DNA of 32,000 nucleotides. Origin: an uncultured Erysipelotrichaceae bacterium (lineage in GTDB: Bacteria; Bacillota_I; Bacilli_A; Erysipelotrichales; Erysipelotrichaceae). Made by a program: the position numbers and the translations under genes. The DNA lies in assembly GCA_942493105.1 (NCBI GenBank), contig OW818668.1, forward strand, positions 1,080,001 to 1,112,000, given 5' to 3'. Under the pieces are notes generated by a model. That model did not search any database. It was not told where the DNA came from and saw nothing but the letters and a program-made list of their open reading frames with translations. Shown here piece by piece: positions 1-24,252 of the stretch. Position 1 is the first letter of the stretch, and every line of letters starts with the position of its first letter.

Positions 1-562
1 CAATCAATGTTTTAATCGTTTTTTTCGTCTCTACTAAATTTAGTTTGTCTTGTTTTACTGATTCTGTAGAAATAGGCATAAAAAGTCGGTTTATCAAAAT
101 CTCCTTTGTATCTTCAATTGCATATGTAATTAATATAGAAATCTCTCCAGCCTTAATTTCTTCATCCTGATAGCTTTCCATTTCAGGTCGATCCAAATAA
201 ATTGGCTTTACGGAAAATATGCTACTTCCATTTAATGGTACAGTCATCGAATTATCTAAACAAAGTTTTCTATCGTAATCTGTAACCACCTTTAACTTCA
301 TAATCTCCCTTTCGTAATTATCAAAAAAATAGTTTGCAACTTGGGGTGAGATTATAAGCTTTTTAGAAAGTCCATAAAAATAAACCCCACTCCTGAATGA
401 CTGTATATCAATTTCTCCATAATTATTAAGTATTTTTTCAATATATCCAAAATAAAGATCAATTATATAATCACAGAAACTACCTTTTTCCATATACTTT
501 TCCAAAGATAATCTATCAAGCACATCGTAAAATATATACATGTATTCAAATTGTTTATTCAT
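1..562 (-). CDS. hypothetical protein, N-terminal 187 codons (gene continues beyond left edge)
   Basis: Not in the supplied track because it runs off the edge. Checked by hand: the minus-strand frame with codon low ends at 2,5,...,560 has no TTA/CTA/TCA from 2 to 562. ATG is the complement of 560-562, preceded by GGAAAGGGA (SD-like). Translation starts MNKQFEYMYIFYDVLDRL. No domain recognised. Confidence 0.5.
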   Translation of the reverse strand, partial: MNKQFEYMYIFYDVLDRLSLEKYMEKGSFCDYIIDLYFGYIEKILNNYGEIDIQSFRSGVYFYGLSKKLIISPQVANYFFDNYEREIMKLKVVTDYDRKLCLDNSMTVPLNGSSIFSVKPIYLDRPEMESYQDEEIKAGEISILITYAIEDTKEILINRLFMPISTESVKQDKLNLVETKKTIKTLI

Positions 563-739
563 TTTATCCCTTTCCTCATAATAAAAGCCATTACAAAAAT
601 TGTAACAGAGAATCTTTAGATTTACATATCTATTACATATTGAAGTGAATATTTTGAGGAAGTGTGAAAGTGGATTAGGTCGACATTTATAGAGTAACAA
701 TGTTGAAGTGGTCTGAGAAAAACTACTCAGACTTTGGCT

Positions 740-847
740 TTGGCAAACTCACCGTTGGACAAGATTGGTAGTGCCTAAGCGTTAATACTAGAATGTAGGG
801 AATGCTCCATGTGGAGCTGATACGAAGACCGTGGAGAGTTCTGGAAT
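740..847 (+). ncRNA. R1 element copy 1: unclassified structured-looking intergenic element
   Basis: About 108 nt, roughly 84% identical (hand alignment) to 6093-6201, while flanks are unrelated. Helices: GCTCC 804-808 / GGAGC 813-817 (loop differs between copies); GGACAA 757-762 / TAGT(G)CC 769-775, where A762-T769 is C-G in the other copy; ACTCACC 747-753 / GGAGAGT 833-839. TAG 769-771 stops the frame that is open in copy 2, so it is non-coding. Preceded by hairpin GTCTGAG 711-717 / CTCAGAC 726-732. Confidence 0.55.
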
Positions 848-858
848 TAGATGAATTG

Positions 859-891
859 ATGGTAGACTAGCGGACTAAGAAAAGGGATATT
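859..891 (+). promoter_or_regulatory. S box copy A: conserved promoter-like box (TAGACT 863-868, 17-nt spacer, GATATT 886-891)
   Basis: One of four copies of GGTAGACTA-N8-AAGAAAAGGGATA(A/T)T. The -35-like and -10-like hexamers are exactly 17 nt apart in all copies. Lies 78 nt upstream of ATG 969. This copy lacks the upstream ACACGCATAGTAGG flank. Confidence 0.5.
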
Positions 892-968
892 GGAAATAAT
901 GTTGGGTAGGTCATAAACCTCTCCATGAAAGTCAAAGAAGACCAATTTTCCCAAAATGAGGTATCAAT

Positions 969-1232
969 ATGATATTTAAAAAAACTTGGAAACATAAAAT
1001 CACAGGGCGTGATGGAAACTGCATTCTTTTTGGAGTTAACATCATTAGTTACGAGTGGAATGTTACCGGAGAAAAGATAACAGTTTTTGACCCTAAATAT
1101 CACGAGGAACATATACTTAACGTTTATACTGTTAATATTGATGGAACAATAAAAAGGTTTGCTGCTGGCGAATTTAGCAACGGTGTATGGGGATTCTACT
1201 TAGAAAAATGGTTTATTAAAGTAAGACAATAA
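969..1232 (+). CDS. hypothetical protein (87 aa)
   Basis: ORF track. GAGG 958-961 lies 7 nt before the ATG, within the CAAAATGAGGTA block also found before ORF 4769. No domain recognised. Confidence 0.7.
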   Translation: MIFKKTWKHKITGRDGNCILFGVNIISYEWNVTGEKITVFDPKYHEEHILNVYTVNIDGTIKRFAAGEFSNGVWGFYLEKWFIKVRQ

Positions 1233-1321
1233 GAGGATTGTTGGTTTTTAGATTACAGTGGATTTATAAGAGAGCCCTGTGAGGATTATCATATAAGTAC
1301 AACAGAGTAAAAAGGTTTGGT

Positions 1322-1421
1322 CGTTCCCGTTATCCCGAGGGACACGAACTCACTCAGCCCTTAAGCTAATACTCGTCAACACAGAACGCTTCCCTAAGTG
1401 TCCCGGATTGACAGAGGGAAT
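1322..1421 (+). ncRNA. R3 element copy 1: unclassified structured-looking intercistronic element
   Basis: About 100 nt, ~90% identical to 7799-7897 with unrelated flanks. Complementary arms: GGGACAC 1339-1345 / GTGTCCC 1398-1404; TTCCC 1324-1328 / GGGAA 1416-1420; AAGC 1363-1366 / GCTT 1388-1391 (AAGT/GTTT in copy 2, i.e. G-C changed to G-U on the + strand). Confidence 0.6.
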
Positions 1422-1460
1422 AAGAAAATATTCGAAGGAATTATTATTGGAGGTAACTTG

Positions 1461-2354
1461 GTGAACGAATATAAAGAAGATTGGATCAATGAGACAATCG
1501 ACATATCAATGATAATTAACTTCAAAGAACTAAAAGGGGTACTAGACTGTACTTATGTTGTTCTTGAAATACTCGGTGAGAATCTTGGAACGATTATAAA
1601 AGCGATTTTTTCAAAAGATAAGGTGCGTTATTTATCTTCAGCGCTTATTACTTCACTTGAGAATACAACAAAAAGCATTTATATTTGCTGTAAAATTGGA
1701 AATATCATTGATGCGAATGTTCTTGCGAGAAAGTTCAGAGATGATTTATTTCAACTCTTATTCATTCTTGATTCAATAGAGAAAATTGATCAGTCAAAAA
1801 TTGATTTAACTACCAAAGAAACAAATAATATCAAGTTATTTGCTGATCTTGAAGATTTGGTAGATTTATGGTTTGACAACGAAATACACCTACACAAACA
1901 GAAACATAAATTAAAATACTCTCAATATAAGAGCAGGATTATGGAAAACAACGTGATTCTAAATGGTCTTTATGAAGAGCATTTGAAACTTGCATTTGAG
2001 AATCACGAGAAGCTCGATAATTATGTTCATAGCAACGGTCAAGGTTACACATTAGGGAATCAATTCAGTTTCTCGAGTCGAAAAGAATATGCTCATGAAA
2101 TCTCTTTACTTCAATCAAAGCTGGAAGACATAATGGTTTGCTTTATATCCTCAGCATTTCTCATAAGTCCAGATTTATTCATCAGCGGAGATTATTTCGA
2201 TGCAATAGAAAGACGACAAGTTCCTACAGAAGGTATGAAAAGACAAATCGCTCCAGGAATTCAAGATTTCTTTGACCTTATCGGCAATAGAAAATATAGA
2301 GGATTAGGAAAGTATCTTGCTGACGAAAATAAGTACCATATGAGTATTGAATGA
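1461..2354 (+). CDS. hypothetical protein (~298 aa, predicted alpha-helical)
   Basis: The track ORF starts at GTG 1398, which lies inside the R3 GTGTCCC arm. The in-frame GTG 1461 has GGAGG 1449-1453 seven nt upstream and is the more plausible start. No domain recognised with confidence. Confidence 0.7.
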   Translation: MNEYKEDWINETIDISMIINFKELKGVLDCTYVVLEILGENLGTIIKAIFSKDKVRYLSSALITSLENTTKSIYICCKIGNIIDANVLARKFRDDLFQLLFILDSIEKIDQSKIDLTTKETNNIKLFADLEDLVDLWFDNEIHLHKQKHKLKYSQYKSRIMENNVILNGLYEEHLKLAFENHEKLDNYVHSNGQGYTLGNQFSFSSRKEYAHEISLLQSKLEDIMVCFISSAFLISPDLFISGDYFDAIERRQVPTEGMKRQIAPGIQDFFDLIGNRKYRGLGKYLADENKYHMSIE

Positions 2355-2383
2355 TAGAGATTATTCAATCATTGTGAGTTCTT

Positions 2384-2403
2384 AGGTGTAACATAAGTGT
2401 AAC
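2384..2403 (+). repeat. 20-nt direct repeat, left copy (AGGTGTAACATAAGTGTAAC)
   Basis: Matches 2588-2607 at 19 of 20 positions. Contains GTGTAAC twice, 11 nt apart. Resembles the junction box ..AGAGTAACAAC of other intergenic regions. Confidence 0.7.
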
Positions 2404-2545
2404 GTTTTCCGAGAAAACATCTGTTTTTTATTAATCTTTATTTAAACGATTTATCAAAAAACCCTTATTTTATATACGTTTTTTCATTTTTGATAACGAA
2501 AAATACTCAAAGTTTAGAATCCTGTTGTCGGCACCATGACACATC

Positions 2546-2571
2546 AAACCCTGATAGAATCAGGGTTTTTT
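2546..2571 (+). terminator. rho-independent terminator-like hairpin inside ORF-less segment
   Basis: AAACCCTGAT 2546-2555, loop AGA, ATCAGGGTTT 2559-2568, with the T run extending to 2571. No annotated ORF ends here. Confidence 0.6.
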
Positions 2572-2587
2572 GAACCTCAATTCACTC

Positions 2588-2607
2588 AGGTGTAACAAAA
2601 GTGTAAC
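2588..2607 (+). repeat. 20-nt direct repeat, right copy (AGGTGTAACAAAAGTGTAAC)
   Basis: See 2384-2403. This copy sits at the position where other junctions carry the AGAGTAACAAC box, ~35 nt before the S box flank. Confidence 0.7.
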
Positions 2608-2640
2608 AGTTTAATAAAAAACGATAGAAAAATGTACGAA

Positions 2641-2685
2641 AAACACGCATCGTAGGTAGACTAACGGTTGAAGAAAAGGGATAAT
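2641..2685 (+). promoter_or_regulatory. S box copy B (TAGACT 2657-2662, 17-nt spacer, GATAAT 2680-2685)
   Basis: AAACACGCATCGTAGGTAGACTAACGGTTGAAGAAAAGGGATAAT. Both the flank and the hexamers are conserved with copies C and D. Confidence 0.55.
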
Positions 2686-3984
2686 GAAAACGTGAGTAAA
2701 AGTCAGTTCAATCATGATGTCAAACGTGGCAATGGTCAAGCATACTTGATTCTTTTGAATGCGAAAGACAGAGAGAACTATAAAAATGAGCTTTTAGAAG
2801 CTTGCTTGAGGTGTGACACCTTGAATGCCCAAGATGAACCTGGACGGGCAGATTATCTCTATCGGATGATCAGACTTTATCCTGATCCTAGCTACTTTGA
2901 AGCAAAAATCATTGAGAAACTCAATGATCCCACGATGGAGTTTGGCTTGTTTGACCAATTGTCGGATTTGTTGACCTTTATGGCGAAAGAAGGAAGTCAT
3001 AAGGCACTTGATCATATGTGGGCACTCTACGACATTCTAATTGATAGGATGAAAAACGAGAAGAGTTCGCCGGAAATCGAATCAAATTTGGATCATTTGG
3101 CTGTTGATCTTGATCAGATTCTAGGCTTCACCGCTTTTGAAAAGATCGCTCAGGATTATGTCGACATCAATTTGATGTTGGATCTTCACGATTTTGACAT
3201 GAGTTATTTTTTCTTCATGACTTCAGAAAAATACGGGAAGTCCATAACCCAAGCCTATACTGATCAATTTAAACCCATCAATGAAACTGACAACATTCAT
3301 GATCAACAACGCCCACGACCTGAAAAGGGTAAGATGACCCTTCAGGATATCATCGATCAAAACGATAAACTGAATCATTATCAAATCAGAAAGTATCTGG
3401 AAACGGTCACATCCAAAGAACTCGATGATTTATTTGAGCTGATTAAGAAAGAACCCGATTTCAATCGTCGTTTCCGACTCCTTTCCTTTTTTAGTTTCAC
3501 TGATCATCCCATAGACATCGAATTGGTAATCGGTTGGCTAAAGGACCAAAAAACCCCATTTCCAGATAGGGTATATTGGGTATTATTGAGAAGACCTTGT
3601 TTGGCGGTGTATGACTATGCCAAGAGTAAACTGAGTGATCGAAAGCATGCCAATACTGCCTTGATTTTGATGTGTGCCAGTTTCAATCATCAGGAAAAAG
3701 ATGAACTTATCTATCGTATAAAACATATTAAGAACAAGTTTTTCTTACATGACCTGTTCTCTTGGGCATTATTGAAGTTGTATGAAAGGGATACTAAGGC
3801 ACCGGAGGAATTAATGTGGTATTACTTGCATGAGTCAGTCTGCTCTCACTGTCGATTTTCTTTGGTCAAAATCATGGGCAAAAGGAAACTACTCTCTCGA
3901 GATAATCTGGTGGAATTGACTTTCGATTGTAATCAAAACACGATCGATTATGCAAAATCGCTCCTAGAGGCATATACGGAATAG
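2668..3984 (+). CDS. hypothetical protein (up to 438 aa; start uncertain)
   Basis: Long ORF in track. The TTG 2668 start lies inside the S box spacer. The next in-frame start is GTG 2692, right after the -10-like hexamer. No domain recognised. Confidence 0.7.
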   Translation: MKKRDNENVSKSQFNHDVKRGNGQAYLILLNAKDRENYKNELLEACLRCDTLNAQDEPGRADYLYRMIRLYPDPSYFEAKIIEKLNDPTMEFGLFDQLSDLLTFMAKEGSHKALDHMWALYDILIDRMKNEKSSPEIESNLDHLAVDLDQILGFTAFEKIAQDYVDINLMLDLHDFDMSYFFFMTSEKYGKSITQAYTDQFKPINETDNIHDQQRPRPEKGKMTLQDIIDQNDKLNHYQIRKYLETVTSKELDDLFELIKKEPDFNRRFRLLSFFSFTDHPIDIELVIGWLKDQKTPFPDRVYWVLLRRPCLAVYDYAKSKLSDRKHANTALILMCASFNHQEKDELIYRIKHIKNKFFLHDLFSWALLKLYERDTKAPEELMWYYLHESVCSHCRFSLVKIMGKRKLLSRDNLVELTFDCNQNTIDYAKSLLEAYTE

Positions 3985-4085
3985 TTTAAGCGAATACGAA
4001 TTCAGCGGTGCCTTCTAAGAACTGGTAAAATAAGGTTGCAGTCGAGTTTGAAGCCATTCGTCTTTCAGGAAGAAATCCAGGGAGT

Positions 4086-4607
4086 ATGATAAATCACATG
4101 AAATACAAAGCCATTAATGAAATAAGCCACTTCTCATACCATGATGCTGAAATCACGTCGTTTTCCATTAAGGAACATACAATGCATTGGATCGTAGATG
4201 ATATCAATGCAACTATAGAGAACTCTCAAAACAACTTACCTGAAGACATGCGTATTCTAGGATGCATCATTGAGTTTGAAGATGTTCAAGTTGACGAAAT
4301 CATATTCTGTGCCAACTCGCAGTTTGACGAAAACTGGAATTTAATAAAATCTGAACCAGCAAGAAACGTAAATCCTTCTGAATTTGCGACTATTCTTGAA
4401 GAAACCATGAATTCCTGGTGTCGTATCCAAGATTTATCAGCATTGCCCGAAACGAATAATGGAAGATATAGAATCAGTATCTGTCTTGATGGTCATGTTG
4501 GAATTTACAATCTTAACATATCATATAGGACATTCATTGCGCAGTGGGATGAATATTACGGAAAAGCTTGGTATGAAGAAGAACGATGGAAAAACAGTAA
4601 GAAGTGA
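4086..4607 (+). CDS. hypothetical protein (173 aa)
   Basis: ORF track. AGGGAG lies just upstream. ATG 4086 or ATG 4098 are both possible starts. There is no S box between it and the preceding gene, so it is probably co-transcribed. Confidence 0.7.
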   Translation: MINHMKYKAINEISHFSYHDAEITSFSIKEHTMHWIVDDINATIENSQNNLPEDMRILGCIIEFEDVQVDEIIFCANSQFDENWNLIKSEPARNVNPSEFATILEETMNSWCRIQDLSALPETNNGRYRISICLDGHVGIYNLNISYRTFIAQWDEYYGKAWYEEERWKNSKK

Positions 4608-4624
4608 ATGTTGAGCAAATTTGG

Positions 4625-4665
4625 GTGTGTTGAGAATATGCAGTTCGGCTATTTAGAGTAACAAC
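4625..4665 (+). repeat. cassette-junction boxes J1 (GTGTGTTGAGAATATG) and J2 (ATTTAGAGTAACAAC)
   Basis: J2 aligns with 685-700 (ATTTATAGAGTAACAA), 6061-6076 and 11141-11153. The J1 core TGTTGAGAA recurs at 6011-6026 (GTGTTGAAAATA) and 7755-7770 (TTGTTGAGAAAC), always shortly after a stop codon. Confidence 0.4.
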
Positions 4666-4674
4666 ATAATAATT

Positions 4675-4717
4675 AAACACATAGTAGGTAGACTATCAGA
4701 TGAAGAAAAGGGATAAT
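4675..4717 (+). promoter_or_regulatory. S box copy C (TAGACT 4689-4694, 17-nt spacer, GATAAT 4712-4717)
   Basis: AAACACATAGTAGGTAGACTATCAGATGAAGAAAAGGGATAAT, 52 nt upstream of TTG 4769. Confidence 0.55.
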
Positions 4718-4768
4718 GAGAATAGACATTATAACTCGAATGGGTCTTCAAAATGAGGTAACAATAAT

Positions 4769-5992
4769 TTGGATAAACAAAAATATGAAAGATGTACTCC
4801 CCACAGAGACGAAGTATTTAAGAATGAATACCGTTCTTTTTTTGCTTTGAACAAAGTGGAAATGCAATGGAACCAGGTTTATCTAAATCAATCGACTTCT
4901 GTTTATTTTGATGGGGATATCATTGTCAAAGTGATTGAAAACAAACTTGTGGTTTGTGAAGATGGAACTCTGTTTGGCTCTTATATAGAATTTGATACAT
5001 TTGATAATACCGAATCCAGAAGCTTTATTTTACCAAAAACCAATCGGGGGAAAAAGAAGAAGATTACTCCTTCCTCAGTCATGAGTATACTGCCCCAAGG
5101 ATGCAGCTTCTATTTCTTTATATCTGACGAAGATTCTAGTAATAGGATAGTTTTATTAAACAATCGAAACAATCAGGAGATCAGAATCACTGGATTTGAT
5201 AGTGTAAGGACCGCAAACCAATTACATTCCTTTTTTGAGGATTATGTTAAGACATGCCCCAATGATTACTTTGAGAAAATTGATCGATTGAGAAATGCAA
5301 AGCATGTTACCATTAAATACCGCACTGGTGATATCTTTAGGTTCGATTTGGACCGAAGCCATTATGGTTATGGATTGATCATTGCCAGTATCTCAAAACT
5401 AGAGAAAGATAAATTGATTTATCCTCCTCATGGTTTGTGTACACTGATGGGTCAAGGTTTGATCATTCGGTTATATAAGATCAGCACTGAAGATCCAAAC
5501 TTGAAGTCTGAAAATCTTAGAAGCATTGACTTATTGCCTGCTGATGCTATGATGGATAATACCATTATATGGAATAGACACCCTATCGTTGATCATAAAA
5601 AACTAGAGGAAAATGACGTAGATTTTCCGTTTCAACTTAGTAAAACTACGAGCGGAAACATCGTGTTGGATCGTTTTATAAGCTGGGGAATCGGTATTAA
5701 GAAATCGGACCAACATAGTTTCCCTACAAATACTAAATTCAGCTGGAAATCTAATTTAGCTATATCGCAAATTATTCCTTATTATCTACTGGAGAAAGCG
5801 TTACAAGGTTGTTCGGGCACCAGTGTTTATTCAGATTTGCGTCACCCAGATAACATCGAACAATACCATGCTGTTTTAGAATATTTCGGCCTAGATCCCG
5901 AGATAAGTTTTGATGAATTTAATCGGTCTTGCGGAGGAATGACAAGAAAGCAGTATGCAGATTACATAAATTTCCCAAAAGATCAGAACTAA
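4769..5992 (+). CDS. hypothetical protein (407 aa); C-terminal half faintly reminiscent of Imm26-type immunity proteins
   Basis: ORF track. GAGG 4755-4758 is in the shared CAAAATGAGGTA block (4749-4760). The segment YRTGDIFRFDLDRSHYGYGLIIASI resembles the GDxFxxPL..G.YGxG pattern I associate with Imm26-like proteins. This is from memory only and is not verified. Confidence 0.65.
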   Translation: MDKQKYERCTPHRDEVFKNEYRSFFALNKVEMQWNQVYLNQSTSVYFDGDIIVKVIENKLVVCEDGTLFGSYIEFDTFDNTESRSFILPKTNRGKKKKITPSSVMSILPQGCSFYFFISDEDSSNRIVLLNNRNNQEIRITGFDSVRTANQLHSFFEDYVKTCPNDYFEKIDRLRNAKHVTIKYRTGDIFRFDLDRSHYGYGLIIASISKLEKDKLIYPPHGLCTLMGQGLIIRLYKISTEDPNLKSENLRSIDLLPADAMMDNTIIWNRHPIVDHKKLEENDVDFPFQLSKTTSGNIVLDRFISWGIGIKKSDQHSFPTNTKFSWKSNLAISQIIPYYLLEKALQGCSGTSVYSDLRHPDNIEQYHAVLEYFGLDPEISFDEFNRSCGGMTRKQYADYINFPKDQN

Positions 5993-6092
5993 GTATCGGT
6001 TGAATTGGAACGTGTTGAAAATAGCGAAATCCTTTGTAAAAATAACATTGTGATACAGAAATTTATAGTATCAAATAAATCATATCACGCTC

Positions 6093-6201
6093 TTGGCAAA
6101 CTCATTGTGGGACACGATTGGGTGTGCCTAAGCGTTCATACTAGACTGTGGGGAATGCTCCACCTGGAGCGAATACGAAGACCGTGGTGCGTTCTGAGAA
6201 T
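6093..6201 (+). ncRNA. R1 element copy 2
   Basis: Aligns with 740-847. Helices: GCTCC 6157-6161 / GGAGC 6166-6170; GGACAC 6110-6115 / GTGT(G)CC 6122-6128; ACTCATT 6100-6106 / GGTGCGT 6186-6192. The track ORF 6005-6259 spans it but is stopped in the other copy. Confidence 0.55.
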
Positions 6202-6269
6202 GGACTGTAGTATTTATATAAAAGCGCCTATAAAAATCAGTGGATACACTCACAAATGAATTGAGGAAA

Positions 6270-6830
6270 ATGATGCTTAAGAACGAAAATACTAAACTTC
6301 CTTCTTATCGAATACCAATTATCATGATTTTTGGTGCTGTATTGTTATACTTCGCAATCTTCGCAATCGATGACTTTTTTGATTTCAGCGAGGGGTTCTT
6401 AAGAAATCTGTACTTTAGTGTTATGGGAGCAATATGTATTAGTACACTACTTTTCAATCTTTTTGAATTGGGCAATGTTTTAGATAAGCGCAATCTAGCT
6501 AAACTAAAAAGAACAAAAAAAGAAGAGCTTCGTTTTGTTAAGATACCATTGGAAGAAATACTTCATCTATGCGAATCAAATGATATTTTACGAATTGTCA
6601 TTACAACAGATTCTGGGATCGTAAAGACTGGCTCAGCTTCAGATTTGAATAGGAGAACTGGTAAGTTCTTTGACAAGGTTTATTATATCGATGATGATAA
6701 TTTCAATACAATTGAACAATATAGCCAGACCTTAACAGAGCGCATTCATGGTGATAGGTATTTATCTGTGATTACGATTGAGGATCTGCCTCCAACAGAA
6801 TTCAATAGGAAGTATTTAAATAATTTATAA
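6270..6830 (+). CDS. membrane protein (two N-terminal TM helices plus a soluble C-terminal domain)
   Basis: The track ORF starts at 6240. The in-frame ATGATG at 6270 follows GAGG 6263-6266 and gives MMLKNENTKLPSYRIPIIMIFGAVLLYFAIF. Hydrophobic stretches are visible by eye. Confidence 0.7.
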   Translation: MMLKNENTKLPSYRIPIIMIFGAVLLYFAIFAIDDFFDFSEGFLRNLYFSVMGAICISTLLFNLFELGNVLDKRNLAKLKRTKKEELRFVKIPLEEILHLCESNDILRIVITTDSGIVKTGSASDLNRRTGKFFDKVYYIDDDNFNTIEQYSQTLTERIHGDRYLSVITIEDLPPTEFNRKYLNNL

Positions 6831-6838
6831 TCCACATA

Positions 6839-6870
6839 ATTCAATTCATTTGCTTGCATTTGAATTGAAT
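6839..6870 (+). terminator. AT-rich hairpin after ORF 6270-6830 (weak terminator candidate)
   Basis: ATTCAATTCA 6839-6848 / TGAATTGAAT 6861-6870 with a 12-nt loop. There is no clear T tract afterwards. Confidence 0.3.
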
Positions 6871-6894
6871 AGTTTAGATGAGAGTCCAGAAATA

Positions 6895-6936
6895 CACGCA
6901 TAGTAGGTAGACTATAAGGGCAATAAAAGGGATAAT
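6895..6936 (+). promoter_or_regulatory. S box copy D (TAGACT 6908-6913, 17-nt spacer, GATAAT 6931-6936)
   Basis: ACACGCATAGTAGGTAGACTATAAGGGCAATAAAAGGGATAAT. The implied TSS near 6943 would leave GGTGG 6950-6954 plus ATG 6959 as the translation start. Confidence 0.55.
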
Positions 6937-6958
6937 AATGATAACAACGGGTGGCAAT

Positions 6959-7351
6959 ATGAAAAAGAATAATTTGCTGTTAATTTCTTGGATTCTGACT
7001 GTCTTATATTTTCTTCTACTGTATAAATCGCTAAGTAACATTGGTTCACAAACAAACGATGCTTCTGGCATTATCGCGCTTGGCCTATTAGGTATTTTTG
7101 TGTTTCCACATATTATCTTGGCTTTTCTAGGAGGTTTATTTAATATTCTCGGTTGGGCACTCAATAAGAAAGGATTTGCACTTACTGGGGCTATTCTGTA
7201 TTCCGTGGCTATGGTATTTATGATTCCGCTTTTTTATTTCCTCATCATTCAAATGGTGTTGTCATATATCGGGTACGCAACTATGAATACTTCTATCCAA
7301 AATAGTAATAGAAACGAAAGACGGAATTTGGACGATTACCGATCACTATAA
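6959..7351 (+). CDS. small polytopic membrane protein (~4 TM)
   Basis: The track ORF starts at 6938, 2 nt after the -10-like hexamer. The in-frame ATG 6959 (MKKNNLLLISWILTVLYFLLL) has an SD-like GGTGG. The protein is mostly hydrophobic. Confidence 0.7.
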   Translation: MKKNNLLLISWILTVLYFLLLYKSLSNIGSQTNDASGIIALGLLGIFVFPHIILAFLGGLFNILGWALNKKGFALTGAILYSVAMVFMIPLFYFLIIQMVLSYIGYATMNTSIQNSNRNERRNLDDYRSL

Positions 7352-7417
7352 CGCTATTCATTAATGAACATTATTTGAAAAGCGACTCATTTTCGAAATT
7401 TAATTGCGGAGTAAAGA

Positions 7418-7747
7418 ATGAAAATACTAAGAAAGTGCATATTGACAATGTTTATAGTAGTCTCTCTTTTTGGGGGGATATTTTGGTATTATCATCCAAC
7501 ACATTATAAATACAATGGCCGGTTTATCATTGGAAGTTCTATAGAAGAGATCACGTCCGAATACGGTGACTTTGATAAGGTTTTTTACACAGATTCCAGC
7601 AACATCACAATATCGGGTGCTGGATATCTCGTTCAACAAGAAAAGAAGGGGTTCTTAGGAACAAGCCCTGAAAAGTACTATATGATCGTCTTTGATTCTA
7701 CCGGGAAGGCAATTTCGGTATCCATTGGGGGTGGGTGGGGTGGCTAA
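7418..7747 (+). CDS. small membrane-anchored protein (109 aa, N-terminal TM)
   Basis: ORF track. GGAG lies 7 nt before the ATG. N-terminal hydrophobic segment CILTMFIVVSLFGGIFWYY. Confidence 0.7.
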   Translation: MKILRKCILTMFIVVSLFGGIFWYYHPTHYKYNGRFIIGSSIEEITSEYGDFDKVFYTDSSNITISGAGYLVQQEKKGFLGTSPEKYYMIVFDSTGKAISVSIGGGWGG

Positions 7748-7798
7748 GAGCCAGGCTTGTTGAGAAACGAATAATCCCTAATCACAGCTTAGATCATC

Positions 7799-7897
7799 TG
7801 TCCCATCATCCCGAGGGACACGAATGCACCCAGCCCTTAAGTTAATACTCGTCAACATAGAACGTTTCCCTAAGTGTCCCGGACTGACAGAGGGAAT
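7799..7897 (+). ncRNA. R3 element copy 2
   Basis: Aligns with 1322-1421. Arms: GGGACAC 7815-7821 / GTGTCCC 7874-7880; TCCC 7801-7804 / GGGA 7892-7895; AAGT 7839-7842 / GTTT 7864-7867. Ends 46 nt before ATG 7944. Confidence 0.6.
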
Positions 7898-7943
7898 GAA
7901 TTTATTGCCGGTGATATTTAGAGATTAAAAATATGGTGGGGAT

Positions 7944-8828
7944 ATGAAACGTAAAACTAAAAGAACAATTTGGATTATAGTGACATTTTTTGCATTAATG
8001 ATTTTGGCTGACTATTCAAACAACAATCAGGAAACAAGTAGTTCAATAATCGGTTTTCTTGAGCTCAGTGTTATTGTTATATCAATTATATCTTTCGGTA
8101 AACTGTTTGGTCCAAAGAAAGTGAATAAAGCTCCGTTTATAACTGAAAGACCCTATAATTCTTCTCAAACTAACAATGAAGCAACAATGGATCTTTCGCT
8201 TTTTACTAATATCAATTCCTATACAGTTCCTCAAGAAACTTATCCAGAACATTCTGGAAGAATTGGGGAGAATCGGGTTGCTAAAGAGCTTAGCAAATTA
8301 GGTATTGGACGAAAGATCATTAGAAACCTAATAATTGGAAATGATCACGCTACAACAGAAATTGATTGTGTATTTATCACTGAGTGCGGAATTTATGTTA
8401 TTGAATCGAAAAACTTCAATGGATGGATCTTTGGTAATCTATCTCAAAAAAATTGGACGCAGACATTTCCTAATCAAACAAAAAATCAGTTTTTTAATCC
8501 AGTTCTCCAGAATCAGGGTCACATTAACGCACTTCGATATCTTTTAGATAAGTACCCAGGTATTGATATAAGATCAGTGATCGTTTTTTCTGATAGTGCA
8601 ACTCTAAAGAAGATACCAGAGTCGACAAATGATCTGCTTATTCTTAATGAGTCTGAACTGTATAAAATACTTGAGGCATCAATAGAATATAACAAAAAAA
8701 TAAGGCGAGGACCTACTTTAACACCAGATCAAATCTATCGCATTTGGTTTTTCCTTTATCAACATAATATTGAATCTTTCAGGAAACGCGATAAGCATAT
8801 AGAAAATGTTCAGAATAAGAAAATATAA
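7944..8828 (+). CDS. NERD (nuclease-related domain) protein with two N-terminal TM segments
   Basis: GENRVAKELSKLG...EIDCVFITECGIYVIESKNFNGWIFG...NPVLQNQGHINALRYLL...VIVFSD matches the NERD pattern (E-x-D, EVK-type core) as I know it. N-terminal hydrophobic stretches are present. GGTGGGG SD lies before the ATG. Confidence 0.8.
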   Translation: MKRKTKRTIWIIVTFFALMILADYSNNNQETSSSIIGFLELSVIVISIISFGKLFGPKKVNKAPFITERPYNSSQTNNEATMDLSLFTNINSYTVPQETYPEHSGRIGENRVAKELSKLGIGRKIIRNLIIGNDHATTEIDCVFITECGIYVIESKNFNGWIFGNLSQKNWTQTFPNQTKNQFFNPVLQNQGHINALRYLLDKYPGIDIRSVIVFSDSATLKKIPESTNDLLILNESELYKILEASIEYNKKIRRGPTLTPDQIYRIWFFLYQHNIESFRKRDKHIENVQNKKI

Positions 8829-8890
8829 AACTAGATCTCAGCATAAATCTTCAGTACCCATATTAATTTGAGTCAAATATTTCTATGATG

Positions 8891-8953
8891 GCCTTGAGAG
8901 ATACAAGTCTAATTAGACGCTATCCAAAGTGTCCCAGATTGACAGAAGGGGAT
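8891..8953 (+). repeat. R3 element copy 3: 5'-truncated and diverged
   Basis: GCCTTGAGAGATACAAGTCTAATTAGACGCTATCCAAAGTGTCCCAGATTGACAGAAGGGGAT aligns with the 3' two-thirds of R3 (1358-1421). Agreement is best over the last ~38 nt. The GGGACAC arm is absent. Confidence 0.55.
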
Positions 8954-9173
8954 GTAGAGTCTGTTCTTTTAATTTTCCTGAAATCTTTATTCATTTTAAT
9001 AGATAATGTAATTTAAGACATATTGAATCATCTTTTCTTTAGTAAAAAGCTTGATTAAGTAGAAGGAATTTAAGAAGGACGCATTTTTTAATCAATCATA
9101 TACATATCGTTCAAGGTTTAGAGGATAAGTTGGTGATTCATTAATTCAGGATTGAAAGACTTTGTATAAAACA

Positions 9174-9202
9174 TTGATTTGTGTTTGAAATGAGCCTACA
9201 AT
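9174..9202 (+). promoter_or_regulatory. sigma-A type promoter candidate for the ABC operon
   Basis: TTGATT 9174-9179, 17-nt spacer, TACAAT 9197-9202, ~58 nt upstream of ATG 9260. Confidence 0.4.
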
Positions 9203-9259
9203 TTAAACGTTGTTTATGAGCTGGCTTTTTTAAAACTAAAGACGTGAAAGAAGGTTCTT

Positions 9260-9976
9260 ATGACGATAAGTGTCAATCAAATCAGTAAATCATTTGGGAA
9301 AAAGCGGGTCTTAGATCAAGTCTCACTTATTGCAGAAAAAGGTGAAGTGTTAGGTTTGTTAGGTCCATCAGGAGCAGGTAAAACAACCTTGATTCGCTTG
9401 ATTACCGGTGCAATCAAACCGGACAGTGGTCAAATCTCTTTCGATGAGATTATGGTCCCGGATAAACGACTCTTAGGCAAGATGGGCTTTATGCCTCAAT
9501 CCGATTCCTTATATATTGATCTTACAGGAATGGATAATTTAAAATTCTTTGGTCGTCTTTATGGACTAAAAGAGAGAAAACTAAAAAAGCGCTGTGAAGA
9601 ACTCTTGAAATTCATCGGCTTATATGACGATCGAAATAAACTAGTGATCAATTACTCTGGGGGAATGAAGAAACGTCTCTCTTTGATCATTGCATTGCTA
9701 CATGATCCGGATTATCTGATTCTGGATGAACCTACAGTTGGAGTCGATCCTGCTTTGCGCAGAACGATTTGGGAAGAATTCGATACCTTGGCTAAACAAG
9801 GGAAGACCTTAATCATTACGACTCATGTCATGGATGAAGCCGTCAAGTGTACGAAATGTGCCCTGATTTATCAAGGCGAATTGATTGCGTTCGATACGAC
9901 CGAAAAATTACTTGAAAGTACCAAAAACAATACGCTAGAAGATTTATTTTTTATGACGGAAGGATGTGAAGGATAA
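9260..9976 (+). CDS. ABC transporter ATP-binding protein
   Basis: Walker A GPSGAGKTT, signature YSGGMKKRL, Walker B LILDEPT. Confidence 0.9.
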   Translation: MTISVNQISKSFGKKRVLDQVSLIAEKGEVLGLLGPSGAGKTTLIRLITGAIKPDSGQISFDEIMVPDKRLLGKMGFMPQSDSLYIDLTGMDNLKFFGRLYGLKERKLKKRCEELLKFIGLYDDRNKLVINYSGGMKKRLSLIIALLHDPDYLILDEPTVGVDPALRRTIWEEFDTLAKQGKTLIITTHVMDEAVKCTKCALIYQGELIAFDTTEKLLESTKNNTLEDLFFMTEGCEG

Positions 9977-11184: not shown

Positions 11185-11305
11185 ATTAGATTTCTACTGG
11201 AATTCTGATGCAAAGCCTCTGGTTCCTTATACAGTTTGTTTTGTTCATTAAGATTCTGTGCTAGTATGATTTTTATATAGAACTTTTCTATTGAATGGAG
11301 ATGAC

Positions 11306-17233: not shown

Positions 17234-19444
17234 ATGAGAAATAATGCCTATGTCTTTTTACTGGTTGATGACAAATATGAGAATCTGATCATTCTCAAAG
17301 CTTTGATCAAAGAATCATATCCAAATGCAATCTTTCATAGTGCCCTAAATGGAAAAGATGCATTAGAATTAGCTCGTTCAGAAGAACCGGATGTCATCTT
17401 GTTGGATATTATGATGCCAGATATGAATGGGTATGAAGTATGTGCCTTATTAAAAAGTGAACCAGTCCTAGAAGATATACCGGTGATGTTTGTGACTGCA
17501 TTGAACAGTGATAAAGAAACGCGTTTGAAAGCCATAGAAGCAGGTGCTGATGCTTTTCTTCACAAACCCATAGAAAATCTGGAGCTGTTTGTTCAGCTGC
17601 GAACTTTACTTCGCTTAAGAGCCTATAATCTCAGAAAGAAAGGAAAAATTACTGATCTTGAAGGGGATTTGAAAGTAAAAAATATAGAATTGCAGGCCAG
17701 TGAAGAACGCTTTAGACTGATGGTTGAAAGCATTTCTGATACCATTGGTATCACAGATCCTGATGGGATCATCAAGTTTAGAAGCCCCAATAATGAACGT
17801 TTATTTGGAATAAAGCCTCAGGATATCATTGGGAAGAGCTCATTTGATTTCGTTCACCAGGATGATAAAGAAAGATTACGTAATGAATTCTCTGTGTTGG
17901 TCAATGAAGGTAATGATGCGAGACGTAGTGGAGAATTTAAATATTTACGTCAAGACGGTTCGGTAGTTAACGTTGAACTTGAAGGACGAAATATGATGGG
18001 AAATGAGCTGATTGACGGCATACTCTTAACCTTTAAAGATATTACTGAGAAAAAAGTTGCGAATCGTAAAGTTGAAGAAGAATCTGAGAAACTAAAAGCC
18101 TTGGTTGAAAGCACAGATGATTTGGTGTGGATGGTGAATCCGAAAGATTATGGACTTATTCTGTTTAATAAAGCATTATATCGATATTTCGAAACCGGCT
18201 CTGGTATTAAAATAGAAAAAGGGATGCGTCCTCAAGATTTGCTTAAGGCTGATTTTGCCTTAAAATGGAAGGAAATGTATGAAAATGCCCTGCAAAATGG
18301 AGCCTACAAGTTAGATTATGGAACATCAGCATTAGGTAGAATACTGAGACTATCATTCTATCCAGTCAAACTTAGAGATGAGGTCATTGGTATCACAGTT
18401 GTAGGCCAAGATATCACCGATCTAAAACGAAGTGAAGAAAGTCTTCGTAAAGCACTAGTCCAAAACCAAAGAATTCTAGACAATCTTACAGATTCTTATT
18501 TTCAAACAGACTTATCTGGAAAATTAATCATGGTCAACCCCAAAGCCTACAAAATGTTTGCGTATCAATCTATCGATGAAATGATTGGTTTACCCGCATC
18601 ATCACTTTATGCCTATGTAACTGATCGAGATTATCTTATGGGTGAGTTGAGAAAACATGGTAGCTTGAGTGACTACTCATTTCTCGCTTGTCGAAAAGAT
18701 GGCTCTACCTTTTGGGTCTCGATGAATGCTCAATTTTTAAGAGACGAAACCGGAACCATCATAGGAACTGAAGGTCTAGTTCGAGACATCAGCGAACGCA
18801 AGAATTTTGAGGACGAGATTGAAAAACAAAGCGATGATTTAAAGAGTAGCAACAAAAAGCTAAAAGAAAGAATCAATCAATCGGTTAGTGCCATATCTAG
18901 AATTGGAGAGTTAAGAGATGTTTATACAGCCGGTCATCAAAAGAGAGTTCAATTATTGGCGTGTGAAATCGCTCGTGAAATGAATTTGTCTGAAGAAGCC
19001 ATCATTAATATTTCATATGGTGCCTTGATCCATGATATTGGCAAGATCACAGTATCTTCGGATATTCTAAATAAACCTGGTAAAATTACTCAGCTAGAAT
19101 ATCAGATCATACAGACTCATGTTGAACAAAGTTATAACATCGTCAAGGAGATCGATTTCTCTATTGAAGTACCTACCATGATTTTACAGCATCATGAACG
19201 ATTAGACGGTTCAGGTTATCCCAATGGCCTAAAGGGAGATGAGATTACACTGGAAAGTCGAATATTAGCTGTAGCAGATGTTGTTGAAGCCATGACCTAC
19301 CATCGTCCATATCGTCCAGCCATAAGCATCGAGGTTGTATTGAAAGATATTGAGCAGAATAAAGGGATTAAATTCGACACACAGGTCGTTGATGTTTGTA
19401 TAAGTCTATTTAAAGATAAGAACTATCGATTCCTAGATGATTGA
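17234..19444 (+). CDS. response regulator receiver - PAS x3 - HD-GYP phosphodiesterase
   Basis: REC domain (LLVDD...DVILLDIMMPDMNGYE...K). PAS regions. HD-GYP core HDIGK...HHERLDGSGYP. Confidence 0.9.
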   Translation: MRNNAYVFLLVDDKYENLIILKALIKESYPNAIFHSALNGKDALELARSEEPDVILLDIMMPDMNGYEVCALLKSEPVLEDIPVMFVTALNSDKETRLKAIEAGADAFLHKPIENLELFVQLRTLLRLRAYNLRKKGKITDLEGDLKVKNIELQASEERFRLMVESISDTIGITDPDGIIKFRSPNNERLFGIKPQDIIGKSSFDFVHQDDKERLRNEFSVLVNEGNDARRSGEFKYLRQDGSVVNVELEGRNMMGNELIDGILLTFKDITEKKVANRKVEEESEKLKALVESTDDLVWMVNPKDYGLILFNKALYRYFETGSGIKIEKGMRPQDLLKADFALKWKEMYENALQNGAYKLDYGTSALGRILRLSFYPVKLRDEVIGITVVGQDITDLKRSEESLRKALVQNQRILDNLTDSYFQTDLSGKLIMVNPKAYKMFAYQSIDEMIGLPASSLYAYVTDRDYLMGELRKHGSLSDYSFLACRKDGSTFWVSMNAQFLRDETGTIIGTEGLVRDISERKNFEDEIEKQSDDLKSSNKKLKERINQSVSAISRIGELRDVYTAGHQKRVQLLACEIAREMNLSEEAIINISYGALIHDIGKITVSSDILNKPGKITQLEYQIIQTHVEQSYNIVKEIDFSIEVPTMILQHHERLDGSGYPNGLKGDEITLESRILAVADVVEAMTYHRPYRPAISIEVVLKDIEQNKGIKFDTQVVDVCISLFKDKNYRFLDD

Positions 19445-21357: not shown

Positions 21358-24252
21358 ATGGAAAGCTTCAATTTGAATAAAAACGAAAAAAACGAAATCA
21401 AACTTTCGCGTTCAGATGAAAAGTTTAAGTGGCTTTTTGAACTTTCACCTGTCGGAATGGCTTTAATTAATCATCAAACAGGTGAGTTTATTGAAGTTAA
21501 TCAGTCTTTGCTTACAACAACAGGCTATACAAAAGAAGAATTTCTTAAATTGAGCTTTTGGGATATTACACCTCATGAATATAGAGAACAAGAATTACAG
21601 CAAATGAAAGACCTTGAATCTAAAGGTCGATTTGGTCCAAACGAAAAAGAATATATACGAAAAGATGGGTCAAGATTTCCAGTACGTATCAGTGGGTTCT
21701 CATTTGACGATGTGGATGGAACTAAACTAGTTTGGGGAATCATTGAAGACATCAGTAGTCAGTACAGAAGGATATTTAATGACCTTAGAGATGCGTATAT
21801 ACAAATCGACTTATCCTATAACTTAATCTTGGTAAACCCAACGGCTATAAAGATGTTTGGCTATAATACTTATGATGAAATGATTGGATTGAGTGTGGAT
21901 AAATTATTCCTTGATCAAGATGGACTGGAAAAAATACGTGAATATTTAGATAAAAATGATAATTTAAATGATTTCAGTTGCCAATATGTTCGAAAAGATG
22001 GAACGTGGTTTTGGGGTTCACTGAATGTTCAATTAGTAAATGACAAACTTGGAAGTCTAATTGCGATTGAAGGCGTCATTCGTGATATCAGCGAACAAAA
22101 GCGTATTGAAGCTGAGGTAAGTGCAAACGAAGCGAAGTTTAAGACGGCATTTATGACGGGTGCGGATGCTTTTTATTGGGCTACCTTAAAAGACGGTAAA
22201 ATTATTGAAATCAATGATAGTTTTGAATCATTTTTTGGATATTCACGAGAAGAAGCAATCGGCAAAACGTCGACAGAGCTAAATCTATATAGCGAACCAA
22301 GCGATCGAGCAAGAATGATTTCAGAGCTTAAAGAGAAAGGTGTTATTCGAAATTTTGAATTGGTCGGAAGAAAAAAAGACGGCAGCAAAATCTTTGCATC
22401 GCTTTCTTCTAGTATAGTCAACATCAATGGTGAGCATTATAGTCTTGGAATTTTACATGACATAACCGATCGCAAAAATACTCAAGAAACCATTTTAAAT
22501 CTTAATCAAAATCTGCGAACATTATCAGATCGAATGGTTTTTGCAACACATTCAGCGAAACTTGGTATATGGGATTGGGATGTAGTAAACAACGACCTAA
22601 TCTGGGATGATGGAATGTACAATCTCTATAATATCCATCGCAAAGATTTTAATGGAGCGTATGAGGCTTGGATGTATCACATTCATCCTAAAGACAAAGA
22701 AAAAGCAGAAATTGCAATTCAAGATGCTCTACAAGGCATAAAAGACTATAATATTGAATTTAGGATTCTTTGGTCTAATGGATCTGTTCATTACATTTAT
22801 GCGACAGGTCAGGTGTTCTTTGATTCTAATGGGAAACCATTACGTATGGTTGGAATCAATCAAGATATAACTCAAAACAAGAATTTAGAGATTAGCTTAT
22901 ATGAAACTGTGAAACAAAATCAAAGGATTTTAGAGAATCTTCAAGATGCTTATTTTCAAGCTGATCTAAAAGGTGTGTTTACCATTGTTAACCCCATAGC
23001 TGTACAATTATACGGATATAATAGTGCAGATGAAATGCTTGGACAACCAGCCAAATCCTTATATGCTAATCCAATTGACCGAGATATCATGATTGCTACT
23101 CTAAAACAAGAGGGTCAAGTTAAAGATTATACTTGCCAAGGATTAAGAAAAGATGGAACAGCTTTTTGGGTTTCAATGAATGTCCAATTTGTTAAGAATA
23201 ATGATGGAACAATTATGGGGACTGAAGGTGTGGTCCGTGATATATCAAAACGTATTCAAGATGAAAATAAAATAAAACATGAAGTCCAAAGATATGATGC
23301 TCTTATTGAGAGTACAAATGATTGGATTTGGGTAGTCGATTCTAAAAGTTTTGATTTGGTTTTATTCAACTCGTCTGTCGCAGACTATTTCAAAAGAAAT
23401 CATAATATTATTTTGAGACCAGGTATGCCCAATGATGAAATGCTCTCAGAAAGTCGGAGAATATTGTGGAGGCAACTGTACACAAAGGCCATCAAAGAAG
23501 GTAAGTTTTCAATAGAGTATCAGACAGCATCTGAAAATATACACTTTTTGGTTTCATTGGCTCCGGTTGTTATAGATGATTCAATCGTAGGTGTTTCGAT
23601 ATTCGCTAAAGATATATCCAAAGAAGTCCATTATAAAGAAGAGTTAGAAGCAAGCAATATCATGTTATCAAGCAGACTCAATCAAACCATCAATGCCATA
23701 TCAAAGATTGGTGAAATGCGTGATGTATATACTGCTGGACATCAAAGAAGAGTTGCTGAGTTAGCATGTGCCATAGCTAAGGAAATGGGCTTATCAGAAG
23801 AAAAAGTTAACAACATTTATTTTGGAGCATTGATTCATGATATCGGAAAGATCAATATTGCATCCGACATTCTGAATAAACCCGGAAAGATCTCAAGTCT
23901 TGAATATCGTATTTTACAGACCCATGTTGATCAAAGTTTCGATATTGTCAAAGGAATTGATTTCCCATCACAGATCATATCGATGATTTATCAACATCAT
24001 GAGTATTTAGATGGTAGTGGATATCCAAAAGGACTGCATGGTGATCAGATTATTTTGGAAAGCAGAATTTTAACAGTATCTGATGTGGTTGAAGCCATGT
24101 CTTCTCATCGACCTTATCGAGCTGCCTTAGGTACACAGAAAGCACTTGAAGAGATATTAATGAACAAAGGAAAGAAATACGATAAAGATGTAGTAGATGC
24201 TTGCGTTAGATTGTTTATCGAAAAAGGATTTGCTTTTACAACCTATATGTAA
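21358..24252 (+). CDS. multi-PAS (about 6) HD-GYP phosphodiesterase
   Basis: ATG 21358 follows GGAG 21348-21351 (the track starts at TTG 21346). Repeated PAS modules. HD-GYP core HDIGK...HHEYLDGSGYP. The C-terminal ~190 aa are closely similar to those of ORF 17234-19444. Confidence 0.9.
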   Translation: MESFNLNKNEKNEIKLSRSDEKFKWLFELSPVGMALINHQTGEFIEVNQSLLTTTGYTKEEFLKLSFWDITPHEYREQELQQMKDLESKGRFGPNEKEYIRKDGSRFPVRISGFSFDDVDGTKLVWGIIEDISSQYRRIFNDLRDAYIQIDLSYNLILVNPTAIKMFGYNTYDEMIGLSVDKLFLDQDGLEKIREYLDKNDNLNDFSCQYVRKDGTWFWGSLNVQLVNDKLGSLIAIEGVIRDISEQKRIEAEVSANEAKFKTAFMTGADAFYWATLKDGKIIEINDSFESFFGYSREEAIGKTSTELNLYSEPSDRARMISELKEKGVIRNFELVGRKKDGSKIFASLSSSIVNINGEHYSLGILHDITDRKNTQETILNLNQNLRTLSDRMVFATHSAKLGIWDWDVVNNDLIWDDGMYNLYNIHRKDFNGAYEAWMYHIHPKDKEKAEIAIQDALQGIKDYNIEFRILWSNGSVHYIYATGQVFFDSNGKPLRMVGINQDITQNKNLEISLYETVKQNQRILENLQDAYFQADLKGVFTIVNPIAVQLYGYNSADEMLGQPAKSLYANPIDRDIMIATLKQEGQVKDYTCQGLRKDGTAFWVSMNVQFVKNNDGTIMGTEGVVRDISKRIQDENKIKHEVQRYDALIESTNDWIWVVDSKSFDLVLFNSSVADYFKRNHNIILRPGMPNDEMLSESRRILWRQLYTKAIKEGKFSIEYQTASENIHFLVSLAPVVIDDSIVGVSIFAKDISKEVHYKEELEASNIMLSSRLNQTINAISKIGEMRDVYTAGHQRRVAELACAIAKEMGLSEEKVNNIYFGALIHDIGKINIASDILNKPGKISSLEYRILQTHVDQSFDIVKGIDFPSQIISMIYQHHEYLDGSGYPKGLHGDQIILESRILTVSDVVEAMSSHRPYRAALGTQKALEEILMNKGKKYDKDVVDACVRLFIEKGFAFTTYM

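Follow-up and report, generated by a model that had tools for sequence, protein, structure and literature searches.

Arrays of orphan immunity genes are thought to help bacteria survive the toxins of their competitors, and for their collection and swapping of genes an understanding exists only in systems with a recombinase, such as integrons and the rAID loci of Bacteroidales. The repeats that separate genes in other settings offer a useful comparison. The VCRs of Vibrio cholerae (attC sites) are repeats of about 123 bp with dyad symmetry that lie in one orientation and separate unrelated, promoter-poor open reading frames (ORFs). The BIME/REP elements of enterobacteria, the BOX elements of Streptococcus pneumoniae and the NIME/Correia elements of Neisseria are modular hairpin repeats scattered genome-wide; they are intergenic and co-transcribed, and can serve as recombination substrates and mRNA stabilisers. 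Among immunity-gene arrays, rAID-1 of Bacteroidales has an adjacent XerD-type tyrosine recombinase and a layout described as reminiscent of integrons (2019, doi 10.1101/471110; PMC12247911). For the heterogeneous polyimmunity loci, small intergenic distances were stressed and no conserved spacer repeats were reported (Zhang, Iyer, Aravind et al. 2012, PMC3482391). The subject of this study is R1, a repeat of about 110 bases first noted at positions 740-847 and 6093-6201 of a 32,000-nt stretch of DNA from an uncultured Erysipelotrichaceae bacterium (contig OW818668.1, positions 1,080,001 to 1,112,000; "the window" below means this whole stretch). R1 is a multicopy, array-restricted, oriented, non-coding spacer repeat that is mosaic, often truncated or hybrid, and decays neutrally. 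It is one of several spacer modules, the others being U1, U2, D5, D3 and a 330-nt module, that combine in a mosaic. We propose, with a probability of about 45%, that R1 and its sister spacers provide portable homology for the exchange of gene cassettes by general recombination and are probably co-transcribed with the cassettes.

Relatives of R1 were gathered by an exact-pattern scan of one genome per species, by a metagenome scan and by fetching contigs through homologues of the cassettes; the pieces fetched around matches, 1.1-21 kb long, are labelled L001 to L021. Judged by their genes, the R1 arrays resemble heterogeneous polyimmunity loci in layout. As in those loci, unrelated immunity families stand in tandem on one strand with no intervening toxin genes, and content differs between relatives, but most ORFs of the R1 arrays have no recognisable immunity domain and conserved spacer repeats are present. 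With rAID-1 they share a layout in which short genes point the same way, orphan immunity genes are numerous and content varies between genomes, and the conserved intergenic motifs of rAID-1 have their counterparts in R1, D3, D5, U1 and the 330-nt module; the R1 arrays differ in belonging to Erysipelotrichaceae (Bacillota) and in having spacers of 110-330 nt and several unrelated types. Co-orientation and gene size fit the rAID-1 description, whereas immunity domains are in the minority and most ORFs are unmatched. No XerD-family recombinase heads the array in the window, L014 or L021, and L016 has only transposases of the IS110 and IS3 families. Of three rAID-1 features, conserved intergenic motifs are present, co-oriented short immunity-type genes are seen in part, and the defining tyrosine recombinase is absent; for this last reason the R1 arrays are not members of rAID-1. 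The rAID-1 intergenic motifs are the closest functional analogue of R1; a sequence relationship is not claimed.

The likeness to VCRs lies in length (about 120 bp), dyad symmetry, single orientation and high similarity within a lineage. R1 differs from attC in that intI is absent, the stem geometry is not the same and a full R1 stands ahead of the first cassette. In the window, every large ORF was scanned with Pfam and no integron integrase was found. A look for the attC R''/R' cores (RYYYAAC...GTTRRRY) in the R1 consensus gave only GGCAAAC and GCGTTCT, both violating the core consensus, and because the former lies inside the 5' arm of R1 and the latter outside its 3' arm, they cannot form the base of a stem. 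Nor does one site accompany each cassette: many junctions carry other modules or none, and breakpoints fall at six or more scattered positions. By its construction, R1 comes closest to mosaic intergenic repeats of the BIME, BOX and NIME type. It likewise belongs to a small set of intergenic, hairpin-forming modules in varying combinations, but it is confined to arrays in the sequence examined, keeps a single orientation, and has neither sequence similarity to those elements nor a match in Rfam.

The exact-pattern scan found R1 only in metagenome-assembled genomes (MAGs) labelled uncultured Erysipelotrichaceae, together with one chance match in Pedobacter. In a profile search of everything fetched, about 12 arrays were found to carry R1, each with 1-5 copies or fragments and together with about 33. 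All are intergenic and all lie on the strand of the flanking ORFs, and in the examined sequence R1 occurs only inside arrays of short, mostly unrelated genes. The same search found none in the window's 23 kb of housekeeping DNA, collections of viral, plasmid and phage sequence gave no match, and ARAGORN reported no tRNA-like gene. The array ORFs are short and point the same way, and hardly any are related from one array to another; the domains recognised (Imm26, Imm32, DUF4279, DUF4304, DUF2691, YxiG and NERD) account for a minority, and PADLOC and NCBIfam scans of the cassettes added nothing beyond weak NERD-type matches. Within the window the array is punctuated by R1, by D3 with the 330-nt module and by D5 (Table 1). 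It lies a few kb from a penicillin-binding protein (PBP) gene and its neighbour, and the 203-aa gene on its left has no family match. Orthologues of the same PBP gene and neighbour directly adjoin an array in one MAG; the neighbourhood is therefore conserved and the cassette content is not. R1 is probably transcribed with the genes, because in several arrays it fills the gap between stop codon and ribosome-binding site entirely. The distance from R1 to the ATG is 16 nt in L002, and in L021 a stop codon is followed after 23 nt by U1-R1, which precedes the next ATG by 31 nt. L021 also has two R1 copies 335 nt apart (6826-7461) with no called ORF between them, a gap that may be a decayed cassette, and an R1 half-element (11226-11297) after its last cassette, abutting the terminator of a convergent gene.

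The mosaic is seen in the combinations U1-R1, U2-R1, R1-D3, R1-D5, an R1/D5 hybrid and half-elements. U1 or U2 stands directly 5' of R1; U1, which in the window ends in a hairpin (710-733) listed as terminator-like, is also found in front of roughly half the R1 copies elsewhere. D3 is found also in L001-L012, L014 and L021, with a conserved TAGG in front. In the distant array of L014 both of its hexamers and the 17-nt spacing are kept and the spacer sequence has diverged. As a ribosome-binding site with start codon D3 was rejected: its ATG opens no main ORF, and one has to go another 40-80 nt downstream to reach the real Shine-Dalgarno sequence. For these reasons, together with the hexamers and spacing kept in L014, D3 is best read as a promoter, probably one for each cassette. 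A conserved leader of about 55 nt follows D3 in three arrays. D5, a GC-rich (~51%) module of ~100 nt, follows R1 in two arrays, also stands alone, and is more widespread than R1, occurring even in arrays without it. It has possible stems, GTCAA/TTGAC enclosing ACGCTT/AAGTGT, and some of its substitutions look compensatory (ACGCTT/AAGTGT to ATACTT/AAGTGT or to ACGCTT/AAGCGT). L014 contains D3 and D5 and lacks R1, which is therefore the more lineage-restricted module. R1 and D5 were also considered as diverged homologues, and this was rejected: 26% of shuffles reach their local alignment score, and only a 13-nt motif is shared. The 330-nt module, AT-rich and ending in D3, has a terminator-like hairpin at 2543-2572 and two direct repeats, at 2381-2418 and 2585-2622, with the sequence CTTAGGTGTAACAtAAGTGTAAC. 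Further examples of the module occur in L002, L004, L008, L009, L013 and L021 and three times in L011/L016, and is 96% identical between L006 and L012, which come from different genomes and differ in the ORFs downstream.

The order 330-nt module with D3, ORF, R1 (with or without U1) recurs with unrelated ORFs (Table 1). Where two arrays have a cassette in common, homology ends at the edges of modules or ORFs. The cassette shared by L004 and L012 (97% identical) runs from the exact 3' end of a truncated R1 to 12 nt past the stop codon, and that shared by L009 and L014 from the end of D3 to 9 nt past the stop codon. For the cassette common to the window, L016 and L014, homology is bounded by the stop codon on one side and, on the other, by a point in the final 33 nt of R1; in the window and L016, those 33 nt travel with the cassette. 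The R1/D5 hybrid is joined at a common motif, GGGACACGA, near alignment column 40. Relics and hybrids of R1 are common and their breakpoints are scattered (columns ~40, 52, 70, 80-83, 100 and 108-112), which favours homologous or illegitimate exchange and disfavours a single crossover site. One MAG has copies that match the second window copy of R1 at 90-91% identity, although at the protein level its syntenic PBP is only 65% identical to that of the window, and the neighbour 42%. Extra purifying selection on R1 was considered and rejected, as in the block shared by L006 and L008 R1 (85-87% identity) is conserved no better than the adjacent ORF (~90%). The similarity across genomes therefore reflects recent sharing and not exceptional constraint, and the inverted repeats of R1 decay as expected of neutral DNA.

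The two copies first noted have unrelated flanks, as the earlier note had held: a repeat search of the window returned 740-843 and 6093-6196 as a two-copy family with 86% identity, blastn gave the pair an E value of 1.6e-30, and in a MAFFT alignment the similarity stops a few bases from the limits first noted. The bases that it quoted are also right, namely GGACAA/GATTGG/TAGTGCC in the first copy, GGACAC/GATTGG/GTGTGCC in the second, GCTCC-NNNN-GGAGC in both (coordinates of both hairpins in Table 1) and TAG at 769-771. The real start of both copies lies 10-15 nt further 5' than first noted. Because the family consensus opens with CTCAGACCACGGTCTT, copy 2 begins near 6080 and copy 1 near 727; with the start set too far 3', an 11-bp inverted repeat had been missed. 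In copy 1 this closing repeat (731-741/825-835) is decayed, with 8 of 11 positions paired and only 5 of these Watson-Crick, and the fold has a z-score of 0.0. Copy 2 is 77-92% identical to copies in other genomes and 83-92% identical to those with both arms intact; its closing repeat (6084-6094/6178-6188) is paired at 10 of 11 positions and its fold has z = -1.7. A third, degenerate copy can be recognised clearly in its last 33 nt (3989-4021), which are passed on along with gene 4086-4607 downstream; its 5' part now codes for the C-terminus of ORF 2668-3984. Of the window's three copies, the second is near-intact, the first has decayed and the third is a relic. About 15 final codons of ORF 2668-3984 (3938-3984) consist of degenerate R1, so that a spacer repeat has been absorbed into a coding region; this has also occurred in ORF 3272-3826 of L016. 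R1 itself is a discrete, conserved, non-coding intergenic element, as first described. Although one frame is open through the consensus, an origin as a coding remnant was rejected, because the substitutions lack any 3-nt periodicity and the copies contain stop codons and indels of one base.

In the consensus, built from 20-24 copies, the 11-bp inverted repeat reads AGACCACGGTCTT ... AAGACCGTGGT and is subterminal, 5-9 nt from the element ends. Both arms are near-palindromic (AGACC-AC-GGTCT and AGACC-GT-GGTGC). The 5' arm is followed by a third ACCGTGG motif and by hairpin H1 (GGGACAC-GATTGG-GTGTGCC). Next come a highly conserved unpaired stretch, TAAGCGTTCATACTAGA, and a very variable block of 5-8 nt, followed by hairpin H2 (GCTCC-N4-GGAGC), in which 4 of 5 stem pairs are invariant across 20 aligned copies, then GAATACGAAG, and finally the 3' arm. 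The weak sigma-70-like match of copy 1 (Table 1) has a counterpart in copy 2, TTGGGT-18-TAGACT at 6118-6147, and it is after this match that the most variable 5-8 nt, and then H2, are found. The G+C content of R1 is 47-52%, against 28-36% in adjacent intergenic DNA. On the + strand, intact copies fold at about -50 kcal/mol with z = -3.6 to -3.7; on the opposite strand the fold is equally strong (z = -3.8 to -4.7), and the same holds for single-stranded DNA.

The earlier note described R1 as a conserved intergenic element with base pairs kept, or exchanged together, between its two copies. At gathering thresholds, Rfam 15 gave no match anywhere in the window, including SAM/S-box riboswitches, ribozymes and repeat elements; at E<=10, positions 1-9500 gave only two chance-level eukaryotic matches (a microRNA precursor and a small nucleolar RNA), neither on R1 nor on the "S box" that had been placed 3' of copy 1. 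That box, without a match at either setting, is not a SAM riboswitch and is probably D3. In the three helices proposed, 87.7% of cells are paired over 20 copies, but by every measure their covariation equals that of shuffled controls, with values as high as those observed in 226/500 and 205/500 shuffles. RNAalifold gave a weak consensus of -12.8 kcal/mol with a positive covariation term (+0.36). The double change that prompted the claim, A762-T769 in copy 1 against C6115-G6122 in copy 2, is the only both-sided change in the whole structure tested; it is a single event in copy 1, the most diverged copy, and three other copies break the pair. The GCTCC/GGAGC stem is indeed kept while its loop changes, but as covariation evidence it is almost uninformative because only 1 of 5 pairs varies. 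A proposed long-range pairing, ACTCACC/GGAGAGT, competes with the better 11-bp closing stem, which is 86% paired, has substitutions on one arm unmatched on the other and shows no covariation beyond shuffles. It had also been argued that the change of CC to TT in that pairing preserves G-U pairs on the + strand; mismatches compatible with the + strand (G·U) number 12 and those compatible with the - strand (A·C) 18, so no + strand excess exists. The suggestion of an independent small RNA does not fit either: no T-run, terminator or constant expression platform was found 3' of R1, where the neighbour may be a start codon after 16 nt, D5, D3, or 70-250 nt of unrelated sequence. Copy 1 has no obvious transcript over it, since the D3 of the first cassette is downstream of it and the adjoining gene is transcribed divergently. 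Thus R1 as a folded RNA is unsupported by the evidence. The covariation test has limited power with copies so alike (84% on average), and RNA function is for that reason better called unsupported than refuted. The note's own fallback, a DNA-level site and not a leader, is where the evidence points.

A role as a cis-acting structured RNA, transcribed ahead of or between cistrons and acting on cassette mRNA like a riboswitch, as a site of processing or by stabilising the 5' end, could still account for several features of R1: a GC-rich island amid AT-rich intergenic DNA, strict co-orientation with genes, the stable fold of intact copies, a position directly before ribosome-binding sites in several arrays, and the 5'-truncated relics that retain the 3' half beside the downstream gene. 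We nevertheless consider it unlikely, though not to be dismissed, given covariation at shuffled-control level in every tested helix, uncompensated substitutions in the arms, the ratio of G·U to A·C mismatches, a - strand fold as good or better, the changing sequence 3' of R1, the promoter-like box downstream of copy 1 and divergent gene beside it, and the lack of an Rfam family. The subterminal 11-bp repeats, the many highly identical copies across divergent genomes, and the relics and neutral decay that would follow copying could instead point to a non-autonomous mobile element, either resembling a miniature inverted-repeat transposable element or derived from the end of an insertion sequence (IS), moved by a transposase in trans with specificity for target and orientation. 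Insertion by the IS110 family is site- and orientation-specific, and the family is known for site-specific insertion into repeats. One array is headed by such a transposase gene: in L016 (54-2973, and the same in L017) an IS110-family element (DEDD_Tnp_IS110 + Transposase_20), co-oriented with the array, is inserted in the 330-nt module at the array head, with an IS3-type rve gene pair adjoining. Derivation of R1 from this element was rejected, as the IS has ends dissimilar to R1 and is itself inserted in another module, the one of 330 nt. No target-site duplication is seen by eye in the flanks of R1, whose ends are ragged and whose inverted repeat is not terminal; in the examined sequence no copy of R1 is reversed or lies beyond the arrays, and plasmid, phage and viral collections hold no match. 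An origin by transposition is therefore distinctly unlikely.

Less probable still is that R1 is a site for a trans-encoded, site-specific recombinase, either attC-like or a small invertible switch bounded by the palindromic arms. Its outline does recall the VCRs (about 120 bp, dyad symmetry, one orientation, unrelated ORFs between), the two near-palindromic arms have 2-nt centres of opposite polarity, one cassette boundary falls at the 3' arm, and an R1 fragment follows the last cassette of L021. On the other hand, Pfam scans, run on all large window ORFs, found no tyrosine, serine or other recombinase in or beside the arrays of the window, L014 and L021; the R1 ends misfit RYYYAAC/GTTRRRY; some cassettes have other modules in place of R1; the breakpoints occupy at least six scattered positions; and the interior, which at 87 bp would be very short for inversion, is inverted in none of about 33 copies. 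A broader version, in which R1 and its sister modules are the attachment or crossover sites of an integron-like system of immunity-gene capture in Bacillota with its recombinase encoded elsewhere, has in our judgement only a slim chance of being correct; under it, the scattered truncations would be secondary decay of inactive sites. We give equally little credence to R1 as a promoter/operator cassette, with an internal sigma-70-type promoter (TTGGGT-18-TAGAnT) and three ACCnnGGT-like palindromes that bind a common regulator. In its favour, a promoter scan matches copy 1, the most variable block stands at the discriminator position and is followed by the near-invariant H2 at the would-be mRNA 5' end, some cassettes have no room for another promoter, and two of three 5'-truncated relics keep the TAGAAT box. 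But the match is weak (8-9 of 12 positions, with an 18-nt spacer), 39 such matches were found where 35 are expected in shuffled sequence, the "spacer" is as conserved as the hexamers, the GC-richness is atypical (the promoter-type 330-nt module is 31% GC), and R1 often lies directly upstream of the better promoter-like box D3.

We therefore return to portable homology as the favoured explanation. R1, the 330-nt module ending in D3, and D5, at 85-95% identity, would act as patches of shared sequence, and once DNA has been taken up or transferred, ordinary homologous recombination could replace, add or remove a cassette that lies between two such modules. A dedicated recombinase would not be needed for this, and none adjoins the array. 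R1 would at the same time be a co-transcribed intercistronic segment, and a secondary effect at the RNA level can be imagined: its GC-rich hairpins may act as an intercistronic barrier or stabilise the 5' end of an mRNA. REP/BIME and BOX elements are precedents in that they protect or delimit mRNA segments. Alternatively, R1 may carry a weak promoter. Several points weigh against portable homology. Direct repeats would promote the loss of cassettes as well as their gain, and no recombination event was observed directly. The restriction of R1 to arrays rests on pieces of 8-20 kb and not on whole genomes, and its orientation is confounded with the direction of replication, the + strand having a positive GC skew. 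Since homology can be provided by any repeat, the GC-richness of R1 is left unexplained, as are the near-terminal 11-bp inverted repeat and the two hairpins (z -3.6 to -4.8 in intact copies). Finally, the central 70 nt of R1 are clearly better conserved than the arms, which suggests a putative sequence-specific partner, either protein or RNA.

Table 1. Positions of R1, its sister modules and the gene cassettes (window coordinates unless a fetched piece is named).
Feature	Position	Strand	Description
R1 copy 1, core	727..850	+	most diverged full-length copy, 69-84% identical to others
R1 copy 2	6080..6203	+	near family consensus
Third R1 copy, degenerate	3938..4021	+	overlaps 3' end of ORF 2668-3984
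Hairpin H1	757..775 in copy 1 (6110-6128 in copy 2)	+	site of the claimed compensatory pair
Hairpin/palindrome H2, GCTCC-N4-GGAGC	804..817 in copy 1 (6157-6170 in copy 2)	+	loop variable
Weak sigma-70-like match in R1	765..794	+	TTGGTA-18-TAGAAT; speculative
U1 module	~668..729	+	directly 5' of R1 copy 1; GTGGAtTAGGTCGAC...TAGAGTaACAATGTT...
D3 box, promoter-like	863..891	+	TAGACT-17-GATATT, just 3' of R1 copy 1
Further D3 copies	2657-2685, 4689-4717, 6908-6936		family form of the box TAGACT-17-GATAAT; D3 as a module forms the 3' end of the 330-nt module
D5, window	1317-1433, 7792-7909, 8901-8953		
D5, L014	32-154, 2323-2436, 3107-3227, 6644-6701		
D5, L021	9786-9894, 13420-13529		
330-nt AT-rich module	2364-2694		intergenic, ends in D3; 31% GC
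Cassette array	969..8828	+	nine co-oriented ORFs, few or no known domains
Imm26 ORF	4769-5992	+	Pfam domain, 407 aa
NERD ORF	7944-8828	+	domain match
330-nt module/D3, ORF, (U1)R1	4660-6201		Imm26, 407 aa
330-nt module/D3, ORF, (U1)R1	L009		Imm32, 95 aa
330-nt module/D3, ORF, (U1)R1	L006/L008		300 aa
330-nt module/D3, ORF, (U1)R1	L021		161 aa

Two further regions of the window are worth recording. Between 17234 and 24252, two large PAS/HD-GYP-type proteins (736 and 968 aa) adjoin a PAS histidine kinase, and the repeats D1/D2 (18485-18789, 21784-22088 and 22939-23243) are repeated PAS-domain coding segments. On the - strand at 30450-31956, a complete M24 peptidase gene is immediately preceded by a 108-aa ORF with only the C-terminal part of Peptidase_M24, perhaps a fragment of a gene or a duplicate with a frameshift.

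For annotation, R1 is a reminder that one compensatory pair between two copies is insufficient to call GC-rich intergenic hairpins "structured RNAs". The Erysipelotrichaceae arrays show the same cassette-like turnover as the recombinase-borne systems, with long, shared, oriented spacers and no adjacent recombinase. If portable homology is the true explanation, these spacers would give Gram-positive bacteria a simple means of building variable defence arrays that does not depend on a recombinase.

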